Assembly (NCBI RefSeq): GCF_027594745.1 | Contig: NZ_CP110854.1 | Coordinates: forward strand, 1,308,241 to 1,372,240 | DNA: 64,000 nucleotides | Reading direction: 5' to 3' | Source of the DNA: Saprospira grandis | GTDB taxonomy: Bacteria; Bacteroidota; Bacteroidia; Chitinophagales; Saprospiraceae | Part shown: positions 3,712 to 60,275 of the stretch, one piece after another | Position numbering within the stretch: position 1 is the first letter of the stretch | How the letters are laid out: every line of letters starts with the position of its first letter | The notes under the pieces: model-generated | Database searches by the model: none | What the model was told of the DNA's origin: nothing | Seen by the model: only the letters and a program-made list of their open reading frames with translations | Program-made: the position numbers and the translations under genes

Positions 3712-3875
3712 TTTTGGGGCTTCCCCTGCGGCCTTCGGCCTTGGGTCGGGCTGTGTCGCAGCTCGCAGGCTTGCTCGGCCCTGCAGCGCTTCGCGCTTTG
3801 GTCTGGCCCTTCGGGCCACTGCTATCCATCCCTAAGCCAAGTCGCTTCGCTCCTTTCTACTGCTTGGAGCAGAGG
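3712..3875 (+). repeat. Intergenic repeat module A, forward
   Basis: TTTTGGGGCTTCCCCTGCGGCCTTCGGCC...CTCGCAGGCTTGCTCGGCCCTGC...GGTCTGGCCCTTCGGGCCACTGCTATCCATCCCTAAGCC. Confidence 0.85.
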
Positions 3876-9182: not shown

Positions 9183-9397
9183 GTTAAACTATTATTTTAA
9201 TTGATTAATGGTGTCAGTGATTTATAGACAATAACTAAAGTCAAATCTTGACTCTAGGCAGTCTAGTCCAAAGACAAAATTAAATTTTTTATGCTAATTT
9301 TATAATTCCCCTCTCAGAACTTTCTTCCGATTTGCTTATTTCTCCCCTGCCATTTGGGCCAAAAGCGCCCTTTTCCCCTCTCTTTTGGCCCAGCAGT

Positions 9398-9537
9398 ATT
9401 GGCCCAGCGCTGCGAAGGGGGGGCCGCAAGGCCAGACCCAGGCGCTGAAAGCGCCGCAGGGCCGAGCAGACCTGCGAGCCCCGCAGCATAGCGGCGGCCG
9501 ACCTAGGCGAAGCCTAGCCGGCCGCGGGCCCCAAAAT
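9398..9537 (-). repeat. Intergenic repeat module A, reverse, truncated
   Basis: ...GCCGCAGGGCCGAGCAGACCTGCGAGCCCCGCAG...GGGCCCCAAAATC. Confidence 0.8.
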
Positions 9538-9546
9538 CATCTAATT

Positions 9547-11733
9547 ATGAAAGCCATCTATTTCCTTATTTTTCTGCTGCCTAGCGGCCTCTACGCTCAA
9601 AATACTAAGCTGAATATCGACCTTTTTCGCCTTTGGCAAGAGGGCGGAACGCAAAGCGTGGAGCTGATCGTTCAGGGCGAGCCGCAAGCGATAAAAAAAC
9701 TGGCCCAACAAACCGATAGCCAGTATAAATATGGCCTAAATGATTTGGCCGCCCTCTCTATTCCCTTGCAAAAACTGCCCATTTGGTGGGAACATCCCGC
9801 TATTCAGGGCCTACAAGCCCAGCGCCTTAGCCCCCAATATTTTTTTGAACAAGATAGCCTGATGCTGGCCAATAATAACGCCCGAGCCGCTCATGAAGGC
9901 TGGGGTTTGCCCCAATCTTTTGAGGGCGAAGGCGTGCTTGTCGGTATTATTGACGACGGCTACGAATGGCAGCATCCCGACTTCTGGCAGCCCAATGATA
10001 GCAGTAGCCGATTTCTTAGCATCTGGGACCAAGACTATTTTTCGCCCAACTTTTTTATGGGCCAATATGGCTATGGCAGCTATTGGAATAAAGCCCAAAT
10101 TGATTCGGGCCTGATCGCTCAGCCCCCAGGCGAACATGGCTCGCATGTGCTAGGCACCGCCGCCGGAAATGGACTGGCCGCCCAAAAATATAAGGGCATT
10201 GCCCCCAAAGCCGAGCTCTTGGCCGTGGCCCTAAGCGAAGATGGACAGTTTTTGCCCCGCTTTGTGGATGCCGTCCACCATATTTTTCAAGAAGCTAAGC
10301 GATTGGGAAAAGCCTGCGCCATTAACTCTAGTGTGGGGGCCTATTATGGCTCGCATGATGGCCAAGACTTGTATACGGCTATGATTGAAGCGATGCTAGA
10401 GGAGGAAAACGGCCGAGCATTGATTCAAGCAGGCGGCAATGCTCGGCAGGCAAAAATGCACTGGCAAAAGGCCCCAGCAGATAGCGGCTGTCTGGCCTTT
10501 TTGCCCCTCAATGGCCAACTATTTCGCAGCTCGGCCTTTATTGATACAAGCGACTGGTCGCAGCTACATTGGCAATTTGAGCTCAAGGGGAGTCAGGGGC
10601 AAAGGCTGGTTCTTAGTCGCCCCTTTTCCCCTGCCGACCTGCCGCCGCATAGCCCCCTACCCGCCCAAAGAATAGACACTATATATGTAGGTCCGCAAGG
10701 CCCCCTGATTTTAGTGCAATATTTGGCCGAATGGCAGGGCTGCCTAGAGTGGTCCTTTCAGTTGCAGGGAAACAATCTGCAAAATCAACAGCTTTTTTTG
10801 CATTGGAGCGGGGCAGGCAAGGTGGATATTTGGAGCCATGAGCGCAATATGGGCCTTTCTGATATTGTTCTGCAGGCCAATGTTCCTCATTATATTTCGC
10901 CCGACAACCAACAAACCCTAGCCGCTTATTGGACCTGCTCACCCAAGGTCATCACAGTGGCGGCCTACCAAAACCGAGACCAACTGCATAATTATGCTGG
11001 CGATACGGTGTCTTTGGCCTATGCAGGCTTTCCGATCTTTGGCATTGCCGATTTTTCTAGCCTCGGCCCTAGTCGAACGGGCCTACAAAAGCCCGATTTA
11101 ACAGCCCCAGGGGGGCAGGTCCTTTCGGCAGGCAGTCTGGCCGCCCTACAAAATGCCAGAGCCAACAACTACCCTTATTTGGACCAAGGCGGCTGGCATG
11201 TTTCGGCCAAAGGGACCTCTATGGCGGCGCCTATGGTTACGGGGGCCGCTGCCCTCTATTTTCAATGCCAACCCCAGGCCGATTGGGCCGAGCTCAAGGC
11301 CGCCCTGCTACAATCGGCCCACAAAGATGCTTGGGTATATAGCGCTGGCGCTCCGCCCAATATAGATTGGGGAGCGGGCAAACTAGATGTGCAGGCGCTT
11401 TTGCAAAACTGCCTAAAGCCCGGCTGTCTAGACAGCAACGCCCTCAACTTTATGCCCAACGCTTGGGTAGAAGATGGCTCTTGCTACTACCCTAGTTCCA
11501 CAGATTACTTGGGCGAACAAGGGCCAAAGCTCTGGCCCAATCCCTTTAGCGCCCAACTGCAAATAGAATTGCCTCAGGCGGGCCAGCTTTGCTTTTATAA
11601 TGTGTTGGGCCAAGAAGTGGCTCGCTATATTTTGCCTGCTGGCCCAAAAACAATTCCTACCGAAGATTGGCCCAAGGGCAGCTACTTCTGGAAATGGGAA
11701 AATGGACAGAGCGGAAAGCTCATTAAGCAATAA
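9547..11733 (+). CDS. Secreted subtilisin-like serine peptidase (S8 family) with a T9SS C-terminal sorting domain
   Basis: Asp/His/Ser triad motifs (GIIDDG, HGSHVLGTAAG, GTSMAAPMVTGAAAL), signal peptide MKAIYFLIFLLPSGLYAQ, and a C-terminal WPNPF...QLQIEL...beta-sandwich typical of Por/T9SS CTDs. The ORF track starts at 9385 inside a repeat; ATG at 9547 is chosen. Confidence 0.85.
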   Translation: MKAIYFLIFLLPSGLYAQNTKLNIDLFRLWQEGGTQSVELIVQGEPQAIKKLAQQTDSQYKYGLNDLAALSIPLQKLPIWWEHPAIQGLQAQRLSPQYFFEQDSLMLANNNARAAHEGWGLPQSFEGEGVLVGIIDDGYEWQHPDFWQPNDSSSRFLSIWDQDYFSPNFFMGQYGYGSYWNKAQIDSGLIAQPPGEHGSHVLGTAAGNGLAAQKYKGIAPKAELLAVALSEDGQFLPRFVDAVHHIFQEAKRLGKACAINSSVGAYYGSHDGQDLYTAMIEAMLEEENGRALIQAGGNARQAKMHWQKAPADSGCLAFLPLNGQLFRSSAFIDTSDWSQLHWQFELKGSQGQRLVLSRPFSPADLPPHSPLPAQRIDTIYVGPQGPLILVQYLAEWQGCLEWSFQLQGNNLQNQQLFLHWSGAGKVDIWSHERNMGLSDIVLQANVPHYISPDNQQTLAAYWTCSPKVITVAAYQNRDQLHNYAGDTVSLAYAGFPIFGIADFSSLGPSRTGLQKPDLTAPGGQVLSAGSLAALQNARANNYPYLDQGGWHVSAKGTSMAAPMVTGAAALYFQCQPQADWAELKAALLQSAHKDAWVYSAGAPPNIDWGAGKLDVQALLQNCLKPGCLDSNALNFMPNAWVEDGSCYYPSSTDYLGEQGPKLWPNPFSAQLQIELPQAGQLCFYNVLGQEVARYILPAGPKTIPTEDWPKGSYFWKWENGQSGKLIKQ

Positions 11734-11744
11734 ACAACCCTCAA

Positions 11745-11778
11745 AAAGGGGCAAAACTTAGGTTTTGCCCCTTTTTTT
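11745..11778 (+). terminator. Rho-independent terminator after the S8 peptidase gene
   Basis: AAAGGGGCAAAAC-TTAG-GTTTTGCCCCTTTTTTT. Confidence 0.65.
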
Positions 11779-11890
11779 AGGCCCTAAAATCAACAGACCG
11801 CTAAATTTCGCCGCTAAGCGAGCCTAGCTAATCTCTAGTAGGGTCAGCCCAGAAAAAAAAGATAGGACCTTATAGATACGCCCGGAGGAG

Positions 11891-12200
11891 TTTGTAAACT
11901 GCAAATTAGCTCTGGCGTCACGCCAGAGGCGTTTTGCAACTGCAGATTAGCTCCGGCGCCACGCCAGAGGCATTTTGCAAATGCAGATTAGCTCTGGCGC
12001 CACGCCAGAGGCGTTTTGCAAATGCAGATTAGCTCTGGCGCCACGCCAGAGGCGTTTTGCAAATGCAGATTAGCTCCGGCGTCACGCCAGAGACGTTTTG
12101 CAAATGCAGATTAGCGCTGAACAGCTGTATAAAGCTGTTTTGCAAATGCAAATAAAGGCTAGCGCCAAGCCAGAGGCATTTGTAAACTGAAGATAGGTCC
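11891..12200. repeat. Tandem array of a 41-bp unit (about 7 copies, degenerate at the ends), each carrying a perfect 8-bp-stem hairpin CTCTGGCGyCACGCCAGAG
   Basis: Units GTTTTGCAAATGCAGATTAGCTCTGGCGCCACGCCAGAGGC repeat head-to-tail with 0-3 mismatches and no intervening unique spacers. Confidence 0.9.
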
Positions 12201-12219
12201 CAAACGCTTGTTTAGGGGC

Positions 12220-12258
12220 ATAAAAAAGGCCGCAGTTCCTAAAAAGGAACTGCGGCCG
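12220..12258 (-). terminator. Rho-independent terminator of the racemase-like gene
   Basis: GGCCGCAGTTCCT-AAAAA-GGAACTGCGGCC hairpin followed (minus strand) by TTTTTTAT. Confidence 0.6.
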
Positions 12259-12276
12259 AGGCATTGGCCCAAGGAT

Positions 12277-13353
12277 TTAGGCGGGGGCCAAGCGTTTTTC
12301 AATATATTTAGAATTCATGATGCGGAGGATCGCCATATAATCGAGTTTAAACTCGATCAGGTCGCCAACGCCCAGTCCTTCCTCATTACTTCCTAGGTCG
12401 ATAACCACCATATCGGAGGAGGCGCCCAGCATTTTCTGTTTGGGGTCGGCCAATTGCAGATGGGCTTCATCTACATCCAGCAGGCCGAGGTCGATAATGG
12501 CGCGGACCGCCGTTTTTTGTCGAAGTTCATCTTTAAAAGTCACGGCTTCGCCCTTAAGATTAAGGCCCATATTGCCATCGGGCACCAGGGGTTTTTCGTT
12601 CAGCTCGATGATTTGGGCATAAAGCTTAAAGACATCTTGGTGCATCCGTTCGTAGGTCCGATTATTATAGACATCGGTCCCTAAATAAAGGGTCTCTCCT
12701 ACTCTAAAGTGATTGATTCCCTCGGGCAATAGATTCTGAAAAATGAGGGGGATCGTCACAGAGGAGCCGCCAGACACCAGCGGAATTTCTCGGTTAAATT
12801 TGGCCTCTACCAGTTGTTCATAGAGGCAAAGTTGGATCAATTTATCTTGGCTGGGCAAAACGCCATACATACAAGTCAGGTTAGTTCCGATACCCACCAC
12901 TTGAATATTGGGCAATTTGAAGACCTGCTCATAAAAGTCCATAAATTCCTCTCGCATTACGCCTTCTCGCAGCTCGCCCATTTCGATCATAATAATCACT
13001 TTATGCAATTTATTTTGGCGGGCGGCCTCTTCGGAGAGCAGGCGGATGCTTTCGATCTCCGTATTAAAAGAGATATCGGCATATTGGACAATTTCGGGAA
13101 TAATTTCTTGGGGGGGCGGCTTAATATAGATCGTCTCCACCTCTTCCGAGATAGATTTGATCATTTTGAGGTTGCTCAGGCGGGAGTCGCAAAGTTGTTT
13201 GGCGCCTAATTTAATGAGTTCCTCTAGGTAGAGGCGGTGTCCACAAAGCATTTTAGAGACCACGGCCCATTGGATATTTTTTTCTTGAAAAAGCTCGTCT
13301 AAGCGTTGGTAATTTTCGGCTAGTTTTTGACTATCTAAGGTGATAAATGCCAT
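12277..13353 (-). CDS. PLP-dependent amino-acid racemase-family enzyme (alanine racemase N-terminal fold; YhfX/ornithine-racemase-like)
   Basis: N-terminal WAVVSKMLCGH (PLP-lysine context of alanine-racemase-fold enzymes); about 358 aa. Confidence 0.55.
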   Translation of the reverse strand: MAFITLDSQKLAENYQRLDELFQEKNIQWAVVSKMLCGHRLYLEELIKLGAKQLCDSRLSNLKMIKSISEEVETIYIKPPPQEIIPEIVQYADISFNTEIESIRLLSEEAARQNKLHKVIIMIEMGELREGVMREEFMDFYEQVFKLPNIQVVGIGTNLTCMYGVLPSQDKLIQLCLYEQLVEAKFNREIPLVSGGSSVTIPLIFQNLLPEGINHFRVGETLYLGTDVYNNRTYERMHQDVFKLYAQIIELNEKPLVPDGNMGLNLKGEAVTFKDELRQKTAVRAIIDLGLLDVDEAHLQLADPKQKMLGASSDMVVIDLGSNEEGLGVGDLIEFKLDYMAILRIMNSKYIEKRLAPA

Positions 13354-13399: not shown

Positions 13400-13572
13400 T
13401 TTTGGGGCTGCCCCTGCGGCCTTCGGCCTTGGGTCGGGCTGTGTCGCAGCTCGCAGGTCTGCTCGGCCCTGCGGCGGCTTTGCCGCCTGGGTCTGGCCTG
13501 CGGCCACTGCTGTCCATCCCTCAGCCGCGTCGCTACGCTCCTTTGCGGCCCTTCGGGCCTGTAGGAGGCAGA
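13400..13572 (+). repeat. Intergenic repeat module A, forward
   Basis: TTTTGGGGCTGCCCCTGCGGCCTTCGGCC...CTCGCAGGTCTGCTCGGCCCTGCGGCGGCTTTGCCGCC...CATCCCTCAGCCGCGTCGCTACGCTCCTTTGCGGCCCTTCGGGCC. Confidence 0.85.
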
Positions 13573-14267: not shown

Positions 14268-14440
14268 TTGCAGGGCCGAAGGCCCGCAAAGGAGCGTAGC
14301 GACGCGGCTGAGGGATGGACAGCAGTGGCCGAAGGCCAGACCCAGGCAGCTTTGCTGCCGCAGGGCCGAGCGAACAGCGAGCTGCGACACAGCCCGACCC
14401 AAGGCCGCAGGCCGCAGGGGCAGCCCCAACAAAAAATAAA
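14268..14440 (-). repeat. Intergenic repeat module A, reverse
   Basis: GGGCCGAAGGCCCGCAAAGGAGCGTAGCGACGCGGCTGAGGGATGG...GGCAGCCCCAACAAAAAA. Confidence 0.85.
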
Positions 14441-19743: not shown

Positions 19744-19906
19744 TTTTTTTTGGGGCTGCCCCTGCGGCCTGCGGCCTTGGGTCGGGCCATTGCGCAGCTC
19801 GCAGGTCTGCTCGGCCCTGCACAGGCTGCGCCTGTTTGGTCTGCCGCCTGCGGCGGCCCTGCTACAGCCCCTCAGCCGATAGGCTGGGGCTGCGCCCCAG
19901 CCCCAT
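19744..19906 (+). repeat. Intergenic repeat module A, forward
   Basis: TTTTTTTTGGGGCTGCCCCTGCGGCCTGCGGCCTTGGGTCGGGCCATTGCGCAGCTCGCAGGTCTGCTCGGCCCTGC...CCCTCAGCC plus a GGCTGGGGCTGCGCCCCAGCC hairpin. Confidence 0.85.
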
Positions 19907-27013: not shown

Positions 27014-27160
27014 CAGAGCGGGCCGAAGGCCCGCCGGCCTAGCGATGTGCAGCAGTGCGGCGCAGCCGCAGACCCAGGCCGTCAGGCCGCAGGGCCGAGC
27101 AGACCTGCGAGCTGCGAAACGTAGCGCCGCAAGGCAAAGCCGCAGCGGAGGCCCCAAAAC
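27014..27160 (-). repeat. Intergenic repeat module A, reverse
   Basis: GGGCCGAAGGCCCGCCGGCCTAGCGATGTGCAGCAGTG...GGCCGAGCAGACCTGCGAGCTGCGAAACGTAGCGCC...GGAGGCCCCAAAA. Confidence 0.85.
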
Positions 27161-32555: not shown

Positions 32556-32726
32556 AGAGGACAGGCGGCGAAGCCGCCGCAAAGGAGCGCAGCGACGCGG
32601 CTGAGGGATGGATAGCAGTGGCCCGCAGGGCCAGACCGAAGCGCTTTAGCGCTGAAGGGCCGAGCAGACCTGCGAGCTGCGGCACAGCCCGACCCGCCCG
32701 CAGGGCGGGGCAGCCCCAAAAAAAGA
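32556..32726 (-). repeat. Intergenic repeat module A, reverse, lying between the TPR gene stop and the OMP gene start
   Basis: GGCGGCGAAGCCGCCGCAAAGGAGCGCAGCGACGCGGCTGAGGGATGGATAGCAGTGGCC...GGCCGAGCAGACCTGCGAGCTGCG...GGGCAGCCCCAAAAAAAG. Confidence 0.85.
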
Positions 32727-43208: not shown

Positions 43209-43360
43209 GACCTTCGGTCATTCCTACCCCCAAAAGCTGCTGGGCCTGAAAACAGCAGCCCGCCATAAAATTAGAAGCAGGGGCTTTTAAGCTCCTGCGG
43301 CAAGAAAAATGAGGACCAACAAGATTGGCTGCGGCCTTTAGGCTGCAGTAAGCTCATTTA

Positions 43361-43578
43361 TATATCATTGCGAAGCAATACCATTGTTGCTGTAGGTTTC
43401 AACCTAAGTTCAATCCATGAGGGTTTTAACCCTCATCCATATATCATTGCGAAGCAATACCATCTGGCTGTAGGTTTCAACCTAAGTTCAATTCATGAGG
43501 GTTTTAACCCTCATCCATATATCATTGCGAAGCAATACCATCTGGCTGTAGGTTTCAACCTACAGTTAAAAGGGCCGA
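43361..43578 (-). repeat. Tandem array (78 bp x about 2.7) of module B (three palindromic hairpins)
   Basis: Units ATATCATTGCGAAGCAATACCATCTGGCTGTAGGTTTCAACCTAAGTTCAATyCATGAGGGTTTTAACCCTCATCCAT repeated at 43363, 43441 and 43519. Confidence 0.9.
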
Positions 43579-43712
43579 AGGCCCGCGGCTGAGGGATGGA
43601 CAGCAGTGGCCGAAGGCCAGACCCAGCCGCTGAAGGCGGCGCAGGGCCGAGCGAACAGCGAGCTGCGAAACAGCCCGACCCAGCCAAAGGCTGGGGCAGC
43701 CCCAAAAAAAGA
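43579..43712 (-). repeat. Intergenic repeat module A, reverse, directly abutting the module-B array
   Basis: GGGCCGAAGGCCCGCGGCTGAGGGATGGACAGCAGTGGCC...GGCCGAGCGAACAGCGAGCTGCGAAACAGCCCGACCC...GGGGCAGCCCCAAAAAAAG. Confidence 0.85.
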
Positions 43713-55447: not shown

Positions 55448-55590
55448 AAGGCCCGAAGGGCCGCAGGCCTAGCGATGTGCAGCAGTGGCCGTCAGGCCAG
55501 ACCCAGCCGCTGAAAGCGGCGCAGGGCCGAGCGAATAGCGAGCTGCGGAACGTAGCGCCGACGAGCGAAGCGAGGCGGAGGCCCAAAAAA
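55448..55590 (-). repeat. Intergenic repeat module A, reverse
   Basis: GGCCCGAAGGGCCGCAGGCCTAGCGATGTGCAGCAGTGGCCGTCAGGCCAGACCC...GGCCGAGCGAATAGCGAGCTGCGGAACGTAGCGCC...GGAGGCCCAAAAAAA. Confidence 0.85.
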
Positions 55591-55627
55591 ATCGCCCTTA
55601 TCCTCGATCATTTTCTTCAGAAGTGCT

Positions 55628-60118: not shown

Positions 60119-60275
60119 AAAAAGGGCCGAAGGCCCGCAGGCTGAGGGATGGATAGCAGTGGCCCAAAGGGCCAGACCCAGCCGCCTTTGGCGGCGCAGG
60201 GCCGAGCAGACCTGCGAGCTGCGACACAGCCCGACCCGAAGGCCCAAAGGGCCGAAGGGGCAGCCCCAAAAAAAG
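60119..60275 (-). repeat. Intergenic repeat module A, reverse; with 59723-59915 it forms an inverted pair bracketing module B
   Basis: GGGCCGAAGGCCCGCAGGCTGAGGGATGGATAGCAGTGGCCC...GGCCGAGCAGACCTGCGAGCTGCGACACAGCCCGACCC...GGGGCAGCCCCAAAAAAAG. Confidence 0.85.

Follow-up and report, generated by a model that had tools for sequence, protein, structure and literature searches.

A tandem array of 41-bp hairpin units as the variable middle of a composite intergenic repeat in Saprospira

The described bacterial repeats closest to the one considered here are the BOX elements, which are dispersed in about a hundred or more copies per genome, and the repetitive extragenic palindromes (REPs), which occur in hundreds of copies and, in bacterial interspersed mosaic elements (BIMEs), take alternating orientations and have a link to RAYT transposases. 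BOX elements have the layout boxA-(boxB)n-boxC, in which conserved ends enclose a middle module of ~45 bp that is tandemly repeated in strain-variable number, and their modules are predicted to form stem-loops, with the middle folding independently (PMC3049150). Purely tandem units without spacers are also known from the antitoxin arrays of type III toxin–antitoxin systems (ToxI, CptI and TenpI), with repeats of 31-62 nt in 1.9-5.6 copies (PMC3401426). The present analysis concerns a spacer-less array of 41-bp hairpin units in Saprospira grandis, a member of the Bacteroidota, located between convergent genes for an S8 peptidase and a racemase-like protein in a stretch of 64,000 nucleotides (positions 1,308,241 to 1,372,240 of contig NZ_CP110854.1, assembly GCF_027594745.1), which is hereafter called the window and to which all coordinates refer unless another contig is named.

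The array is the middle of a composite element of ~440 bp (11779-12220) made of a leader, the units and a tail, and related elements are found at two chromosomal loci: locus A, between the peptidase and racemase genes, and locus B, downstream of phoX. The reading that we favour, tentatively and with a little less than even confidence, is that the array is the expandable middle of a low-copy, genus-specific, non-coding composite intergenic repeat of BOX type (A-Bn-C) which behaves as a variable-number tandem repeat (VNTR), and any function of which would be exerted as RNA or single-stranded DNA (ssDNA) hairpins downstream of the upstream gene. Most likely, the array has no role as a source of guides or antitoxins, nor as a set of phased sites for protein binding. 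The repeat family is real and cleanly delimited and, as far as the Rfam, sequence-collection and literature searches show, previously undescribed; there is no evidence of a new mechanism. Were the favoured reading correct, the modular A-Bn-C architecture of streptococci would also exist in Bacteroidota, at a copy number so low that gain, loss, inter-locus conversion and unit turnover could easily be traced, and the element would provide a VNTR marker for Saprospira. Whether or not it is correct, the locus no longer needs to be listed among candidate CRISPR-like or defence systems.

The likeness to the BOX elements of Streptococcus pneumoniae and Streptococcus suis lies in the three modules, the variable middle, the intergenic and non-coding character and the predicted stem-loops, with a middle module that folds on its own; the 5′ and 3′ modules are conserved and the number of middle modules varies by strain and by locus. 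The Saprospira element differs from them in the one or two loci per genome that were seen, in belonging to another phylum and in the exchange of hairpin types between its two loci. Dispersal in tens to hundreds of copies per genome, as expected of BOX, was not found: the 64-kb window holds one copy, and a leader profile retrieved no copy beyond loci A and B in the ~150-200 kb of Saprospira DNA searched. On this comparison the element is not to be regarded as a member of the BOX family, and the likeness proposed here concerns architecture only. No similarity to the terminal inverted repeat of an insertion sequence was found. REPs, BIMEs and the Neisseria intergenic mosaics offer a second parallel, with extragenic palindromes, in some cases clustered, that lie at gene 3′ ends or between convergent genes of a genome with other mosaic repeats. 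On the other hand, the Saprospira units follow one another strictly head-to-tail at an exact 41-bp period, are low-copy and have no transposase nearby, and a REP/BIME assignment was rejected on the grounds of the low copy number and the strictly direct orientation. Bacterial VNTRs or minisatellites, such as the mycobacterial MIRUs and the pneumococcal loci used in multiple-locus VNTR analysis, share an intergenic unit of 40-100 bp that is polymorphic in number between strains, but in the Saprospira element leader and tail are conserved, there is a second, paralogous locus, and the hairpin is maintained with compensatory changes.

Architecture and distribution of the element

Seven head-to-tail 41-bp units, five canonical and two degenerate, extend over 11890-12177 and are followed by a partial eighth. 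Tandem Repeats Finder reported 11891-12119 with a period of 41, 5.6 copies, 92% matches and a score of 379, while a repeat search placed in-register starts at 11890, 11931, 11972, 12013, 12054 and 12137, the start of the sixth unit (U6) at 12095 coming from direct reading. Neither the complete unit nor its left half or its hairpin recurs elsewhere in the 64-kb window, and none of 100 shuffles equalled the match counts. A preliminary description of this DNA had proposed a 41-bp tandem hairpin array of about seven units, distinct from the other repeat families of the window, and on each of these points it agrees with the present results, except that the first unit starts at 11890 and not at 11891.

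The canonical units (U1-U5, 11890-12094, + strand) consist of the linker GTTTTGCAAATGCAGATTAG, the hairpin CTCYGGCG-YCA-CGCCAGAG and a final GC. A perfect 8-bp stem with a 3-nt loop, attributed in the preliminary description to every unit, is confined to U1, U3 and U4 (CTCTGGCG/CGCCAGAG): U2 and U5 carry CTCC (read CTCCGGCG), which leads to a C·A mismatch on the + strand, U6 (12095-12136, + strand, 42 nt) joins the linker of U1-U5 to an unrelated right half (GCGCTGAACAGCTGTATAAAGCT), and U7 (12137-12177, + strand), the final full unit, is degenerate together with its hairpin (GGCTAGCGCCAAGCCAGAGGC). U7 is kept in S. grandis-type locus-A arrays, and units of the U6 kind also stand late in other arrays, namely BRAZ locus A and locus B of DSM 2844 and Lewin. 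The linker, in which the 8-bp palindrome TTTGCAAA occurs, can form a second small hairpin on the + strand, UUUGC-AAAU-GCARA. Unique spacers are lacking between the units, the start-to-start distance of 41 bp being equal to the unit length. Since a period of 41 nt cannot hold a reading frame and a stop is met in every frame, the array is non-coding; the sole open reading frame (ORF) of at least 60 aa that touches it (12082-12264, - strand) has no family match.

The preliminary description had treated this hairpin array as an object in itself. The array is real, but it represents only the variable middle of a larger element whose leader and tail had been overlooked. The leader (11779-11889, + strand, ~111 bp), which is comparable to module A of a BOX element, is kept at both loci and in all strains; an nhmmer leader profile matches the window at 11779-11888 (8e-34) and otherwise only loci A and B. 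Its segment 11826-11839 (AGCTAATCTCTAGT) reproduces the unit segment ACTGCAGATTAGCT in antisense, and a degenerate unit makes up the final ~41 bp of the leader. The tail (12178-12220, + strand) comprises the partial unit U8 (ATTTGTAAACTGAAGATAGGTCC), an imperfect hairpin (CCCAAAC-GCTT-GTTTAGGG) and the right-hand copy (12215-12220) of a 6-bp direct repeat, GGGGCA, the left copy of which is at 11748-11753 and which together bound a segment missing from strain DSM 2844. The leader (11779-11889), the units and the end of the element (12137-12220) are conserved at the two loci in at least seven genomes or contigs.

Orthologous loci were retrieved via the racemase and PhoX proteins, and one genome of each species was scanned for an 18-mer of the unit. 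The scan yielded ~22 matches, as expected by chance, plus one true relative at a single locus in S. grandis DSM 2844 (L010). The DSM 2844 array is spacer-less with a 41-bp period and agrees with that of the window in the left half of the unit but not in the right; the terminal degenerate units and ~100 bp of sequence upstream of the array are kept as well. Among metagenome and viral contigs, scanning turned up only single matches of the chance type, and BLAST against plasmids and phages returned no match to the element. As far as the collections scanned show, the element thus appears to be restricted to the marine genus Saprospira.

At both loci the element lies just 3′ of a gene for a secreted enzyme and in the same orientation as that gene. 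Locus A is filled in the window (543-bp spacer, seven units), in Lewin (583-bp spacer, ~8 units), in CCB-QB6 (542-bp spacer, seven units) and in ENA, JGI and BRAZ metagenome contigs, is reduced to an intact leader and tail with one full unit in L055, L056 and L057 (296-bp spacer), and is empty in DSM 2844 (75-bp spacer). Locus B is filled in DSM 2844 and Lewin, with ~8 units in each, and in the ENA contig L054, and is empty in CCB-QB6 and L058; ~8 units were also counted in an ENA contig. Lewin accordingly carries two copies. DSM 2844 and CCB-QB6 have a single copy, which occupies locus B in the former and locus A in the latter, and no sampled genome lacks the element altogether. The unit number thus ranges from 1 to 8 between strains, which is the behaviour of a VNTR; a comparison of array length between strains had been proposed in the preliminary description. 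Its alternative, that the unit is a common dispersed terminator, does not agree with the low copy number. Contig L023 is identical to the window and ends inside the array at 12074. Other short-read assemblies also break in the array, with runs of N in L051 and L053 and contig ends in L044 and L054; since such assemblies break or are gap-filled there, unit counts from drafts and metagenomes are unreliable at this locus.

The empty locus A of DSM 2844 (L045 7077-7153, compared with 11748-12220) lacks 467 bp, comprising the whole element and half of the peptidase terminator. The edges of the missing segment coincide with the two GGGGCA hexamers, and the convergent genes are left sharing one hairpin terminator. 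As the missing segment includes half of a terminator that is not present in locus-B copies, a deletion through microhomology accounts for the empty site no less well than an insertion site that was never occupied. A weak similarity of ~15 bp between the termini is visible by eye at locus A only; locus B is too remodelled for its edges to be defined.

Unit turnover and retention of the palindrome

Three types of hairpin are distinguished. The W type (CTCTGGCG-CCA-CGCCAGAG) is found at locus A of the window and locus B of Lewin, the L type (CTCYGGGC-ATC-GTTYAGAG) at locus A of Lewin, at ENA loci A and B and at locus B of DSM 2844, and the Q type, (GGC)TGGGCG-CCA-CGCCCA(CG), with a diverged linker, in CCB-QB6, L055 and L057. 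Units inside one array are near-identical, mixed arrays also occur, and U2 of the window is identical to a unit of Lewin locus B. Because the types are not bound to a locus, some arrays are mixed and this one unit is shared, concerted evolution with inter-locus exchange is indicated; the leaders, unlike the units, cluster by locus. The arrays change in copy number and are homogenized, and the two loci exchange units. Gain and loss of units may result from replication slippage or from unequal recombination between identical 41-bp units. The identity of the unit consensus (59-71%, W vs Q and W vs L) is below that of the fourfold-degenerate sites of the racemase gene in the same comparisons (88-93%), which points to a unit turnover much faster than that of neutral sites, as in a satellite.

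This rapid turnover, the variation in copy number and the losses at both loci would also be displayed by a purely neutral minisatellite that persists through slippage and hairpin-templated mutation. Polymorphisms that disrupt pairing are frequent, and between close strains the leader diverges at the fourfold-site rate (93% identity vs 93%, and 85% vs 88%), as neutrality would predict. We nevertheless consider this explanation improbable, since the leader, the tail and the order of units are kept across two paralogous loci and across lineages that are only 72-79% identical at fourfold sites, the period and the stem geometry are exact, and no sampled genome is devoid of the element. In the comparison with the most divergent lineage the identity of the leader exceeds that of the fourfold sites (86% vs 72-73%, p = 0.007-0.02), as it does between CCB-QB6 and L055 (95% vs 79%, p = 1e-4). 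The conservation of the leader would be, at best, modest evidence of constraint.

Despite the divergence of their sequences, the W, L and Q types all have a period of strictly 41 bp and the geometry of an 8-bp stem with a 3-nt loop. Across 30 distinct units, 88.8% of the cells of the stem alignment pair and five of the eight pairs have changed on both sides, for example from U-A to G-C, from C-G to U-A and from G-C to C-G. The covariation score of 0.449, compared with 0.20 in shuffles, was reached by none of 500 shuffles, and slid registers pair at 26-49% only. As the units are related by descent and conversion, the covariation indicates that the palindrome is maintained and does not give the number of independent events. 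The symmetry persists while the sequence changes, which points to a folded single strand (RNA or ssDNA) rather than to a duplex read by a dimeric protein. The palindrome may be kept because a hairpin in single-stranded nucleic acid persists, either because selection acts on the 3′ RNA made by read-through from the upstream gene or because mutation is templated by the hairpin.

The same features bear on the suggestion, made in the preliminary description, that the array is a set of protein-binding sites or a replication barrier. Palindromes phased at about four helical turns recall the sopC centromere repeats of plasmid F, which are 43 bp long, or iterons, and might serve in partition, nucleoid organization or the blocking of forks or transcription. 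A strict 41-bp period retained despite a divergence of 29-41% between the W type and the other two, the palindrome in each unit and the additional 8-bp palindrome TTTGCAAA of the linker would suit such a role. However, a palindrome whose sequence changes while its symmetry is kept is the signature of a folded strand, and as duplex DNA the L type is symmetric in its outer 5 bp only. The one-unit versions (L055/L057) disfavour any function requiring regularly phased multiple sites, either locus can be absent, no partition or replication genes are nearby and no plasmid or phage relative was found, all of which makes a DNA-level binding array very unlikely.

Strand, transcription and possible function

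The assignment of a strand from wobble pairs is mixed. On the + strand, the 8-bp stems of the L type require two G·U pairs and the A/G polymorphism of the linker converts between U-A and U·G in the small hairpin. The helix formed by leader positions 11826-11839 with the unit segment ACTGCAGATTAGCT is paired at 94.6% over ten sequences, nine of which have a U·G that would be A·C on the other strand, and a one-unit element folds better than its shuffles on the + strand only (z = -1.7 vs -0.1). In contrast, the common CTCC variant gives C·A on the + strand and G·U on the - strand, and the overall stem pairing of ~89% on the + strand vs ~83% on the - strand (a tally from the pairing table) is not decisive. 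Folds of whole arrays (z ~ -10 on both strands) are uninformative since palindromic units pair with one another. Covariation within the leader is weak, with two pairs and a score reached by 17 of 500 shuffles, and the 5′-closing helix of L055 shows no conservation at locus B when inspected by eye.

The + strand evidence would be accommodated by a dedicated structured non-coding RNA (ncRNA), produced from a non-canonical promoter or by processing of read-through transcripts, in which each 41-nt unit would form a small AU-rich hairpin (UUUGC-AAAU-GCARA) followed by the GC-rich 8-bp hairpin, and which might bind proteins multivalently, as a sponge or scaffold, or be cleaved into RNAs of unit length; a processed RNA was among the possibilities raised in the preliminary description. 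The G·U-compatible variation, the leader–unit helix and the one-unit fold all agree with this possibility, as do the common orientation relative to the upstream gene at the two loci, the presence of a copy in all genomes and the conservation of the leader at the largest distance. To our knowledge Hfq and CsrA are largely absent from Bacteroidota, in which few regulatory RNAs have been characterized, and an RNA of this kind would be a new structured tandem RNA in the phylum. On the other hand, the CTCC variant and the small difference in pairing between strands leave the orientation unsettled, the leader tracks the fourfold sites in close strains and covaries only weakly, the units can drop to one, and neither a Bacteroidota promoter, on either strand and at any locus, nor a 3′ terminator on the + strand was found; on balance, a dedicated ncRNA is a less probable but realistic alternative to the favoured reading.

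Saprospira follows the Bacteroidota promoter consensus: a tRNA gene, rpmI and rpsA are preceded by exact TAnnTTTG boxes, and a TTG or TTTG lies 18-20 nt further upstream. No TAnnTTTG -7 box and no TTG-N17-21-TAnnTTTG combination is present in the element on either strand at six loci, and no sigma-70-type promoter match was detected in it. A terminator scan of the window (W) and of Lewin (L) recognized the terminators of the flanking genes and none of the units, the unit stem being followed by only 4 U; none was called at the 3′ end of the element on the + strand. The lack of a TAnnTTTG box together with the failure of the units to be called as terminators makes an autonomous sigma-A transcription unit unlikely, and it was rejected as a class, given that real Saprospira promoters have exact boxes; an arrangement of tandem intrinsic terminators, defined by a GC-rich stem-loop with a U tract, was likewise rejected, as the units of neither scanned strain were called. 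Judged from these motifs, any RNA would have to arise either from an unrecognized promoter or by read-through from the upstream gene of like orientation, which is the peptidase gene at locus A and phoX at locus B.

The absence of a promoter and of a following terminator and toxin gene also separates the array from type III antitoxins, to which it is otherwise comparable in its 41-nt units (1-8 copies), in or near the type III ranges (PMC3401426), in its purely tandem organization after a conserved leader and in hairpin 'alleles' that could act as specificity determinants. At locus A the next gene is the convergent racemase gene. At locus B it encodes a 205-aa protein with a hydrophobic N-terminus that by eye resembles a signal peptide, without a match in Pfam or PADLOC, and it is also present at array-less sites. 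Membership in the type III toxin–antitoxin class was therefore rejected. CRISPR arrays, for their part, share short direct repeats with a hairpin after a leader-like conserved sequence, but the Saprospira array has no spacers, its 41-bp period is the whole unit, and no cas gene was found among the window ORFs scanned. No Cas or defence domain was detected by Pfam in 25 larger ORFs from the first 41.6 kb of the window, and PADLOC returned only generic subtilase-domain matches to the S8 peptidase among the neighbours of the loci. The view in the preliminary description that the array is not a CRISPR, on account of its lack of unique spacers, is upheld, and the finding that might have overturned it, unique spacers in combination with cas genes, was not made in the array and ORFs examined; CRISPR was rejected on both counts. 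The genuine CRISPRs of strain Lewin are placed in three separate regions with 429 spacers in the published description consulted (PMC10820777, citing Saw et al. 2012). An orphan antitoxin-like array of the ToxI, CptI or TenpI kind, directed against an endoribonuclease encoded elsewhere, or a degenerate CRISPR, is extremely unlikely, as there is no toxin gene downstream at either locus, no spacer, no cas or defence domain in those ORFs and no Rfam match beyond chance (at E <= 10, the region 11700-12300 gives only chance-level names of microRNAs and small RNAs, and just two tRNAs exceed the gathering score in the whole window).

A broader speculation, to which we assign a low probability, is that of a trans-acting RNA locus. 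A + strand transcript, arising by read-through or from an alternative sigma factor, would be folded and perhaps cut into 41-nt double-hairpin modules, and the apical 8-11 nt of these, in their W, L and Q alleles, would determine the specificity towards a partner protein whose gene lies elsewhere, in a Saprospira-specific, orphan antitoxin-like or sponge-like system. The apical 8-11 nt of each 41-nt module are indeed fast-evolving, with alleles swapped between the two loci.

Under the favoured reading of a BOX-type composite repeat, the likeliest function is that of stacked stem-loops in the 3′ read-through RNA, since what persists would be the formation of a hairpin in a single strand; these could protect the ends of transcripts or insulate neighbouring genes from each other. 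Several observations weigh against that reading. The element was seen at only two loci, in very low copy, while families of the BOX, REP and miniature inverted-repeat transposable element kinds number tens to hundreds of dispersed copies. Mobility is not borne out by any clean target-site duplication or terminal inverted repeat, the empty site at locus A being equally compatible with the microhomology deletion and the edges of locus B being indefinable. The universal retention of at least one copy, together with leader conservation above the fourfold sites against the most divergent lineage, hints at selection for something more specific. Finally, the units are not called as intrinsic terminators, and between the peptidase gene and the element stands a strong terminator, so that read-through transcription has to be assumed.

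Flanking genes and other repeats in the window

The gene upstream of the element (9385-11733, + strand), which lies outside it, encodes a secreted S8 subtilase with a type IX secretion system C-terminal sorting domain (Pfam Peptidase_S8, 3e-30, and Por_Secre_tail). It has the orientation of the array and is syntenic in Lewin, DSM 2844 and CCB-QB6. Its start is uncertain: the ORF extends over 782 aa from a TTG, and public orthologues are called at 782 aa (one Lewin annotation) or at 728 aa (most others). The peptidase terminator (11743-11778, + strand) has a perfect 15-bp stem, a 4-nt loop and a T run and, as it is not found in locus-B copies, belongs to the flank and not to the element. On the other side, the racemase terminator (12228-12257, - strand), also part of the flank, has a 13-bp stem and a T run on the - strand. 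It serves the convergent Ala_racemase_N gene (12277-13353, - strand; Pfam, alanine/ornithine racemase family), the product of which has as its best match an 'alanine racemase [Saprospira grandis]' at 100% identity. The coordinates and the hairpins with T runs confirm the placement of the array, as first described, between convergent S8-peptidase and racemase-like genes with a terminator each. The loop of the racemase terminator (12241-12245, 4-5 nt) reads AAAAA or TTTTT depending on the strain while the stem is identical, the window and the ENA contig L042 having one orientation and Lewin, CCB-QB6 and DSM 2844 the opposite; to judge from the alignment, the loop is inverted between strains.

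The wider neighbours are ordinary chromosomal genes, GNAT, DUF2027/Smr and L35/L20 at locus A and VWA, PhoX and DHquinase at locus B, and no transposase, nuclease, cas or defence gene was found near either locus. Two tRNA genes located 26 bp apart (1229-1302 and 1328-1401) have identical Rfam scores, which suggests a tandem duplicate, and are preceded at ~1158-1189 by an exact promoter of the Bacteroidota type, TTTG-N20-TATATTTG.

A tandem repeat of 78 bp in 2.7 copies occupies 43353-43567, with an upstream hairpin at 43326-43350, and is also found at ~7172-7195 of L049 and 6290-6510 of L010; it is probably the 'module A' of the preliminary description. Its upstream hairpin, GGCTGCGGCCTTTAGGCTGCAG, is the left flank of the 41-bp element at locus B of Lewin, and in DSM 2844 pieces of the 78-bp type stand directly upstream of the array. 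With such pieces and hairpin adjoining the 41-bp element at locus B, the spacers of Saprospira look like mosaics of repeat modules.

A G+C-rich multi-hairpin repeat of ~130-145 bp is present in nearly every spacer of the window, at 20 places or about one per 3 kb, for example at 2306-2437, 3712-3856, 13400-13529, 14303-14434, 19745-19878, 27020-27159, 32596-32724, 43569-43710, 55448-55591 and 60121-60274, as well as in L010 (2243-2394, 4300-4440 and 6128-6320), and extrapolation gives more than 1000 copies per genome. Of the two, the 41-bp array may be the less substantial finding. One of its ends is always GGGGC-N-GCCCC followed by a run of A or T, and resembles a terminator; the multi-hairpin repeat has no Rfam match, and its internal short hairpins differ from copy to copy and stay palindromic.

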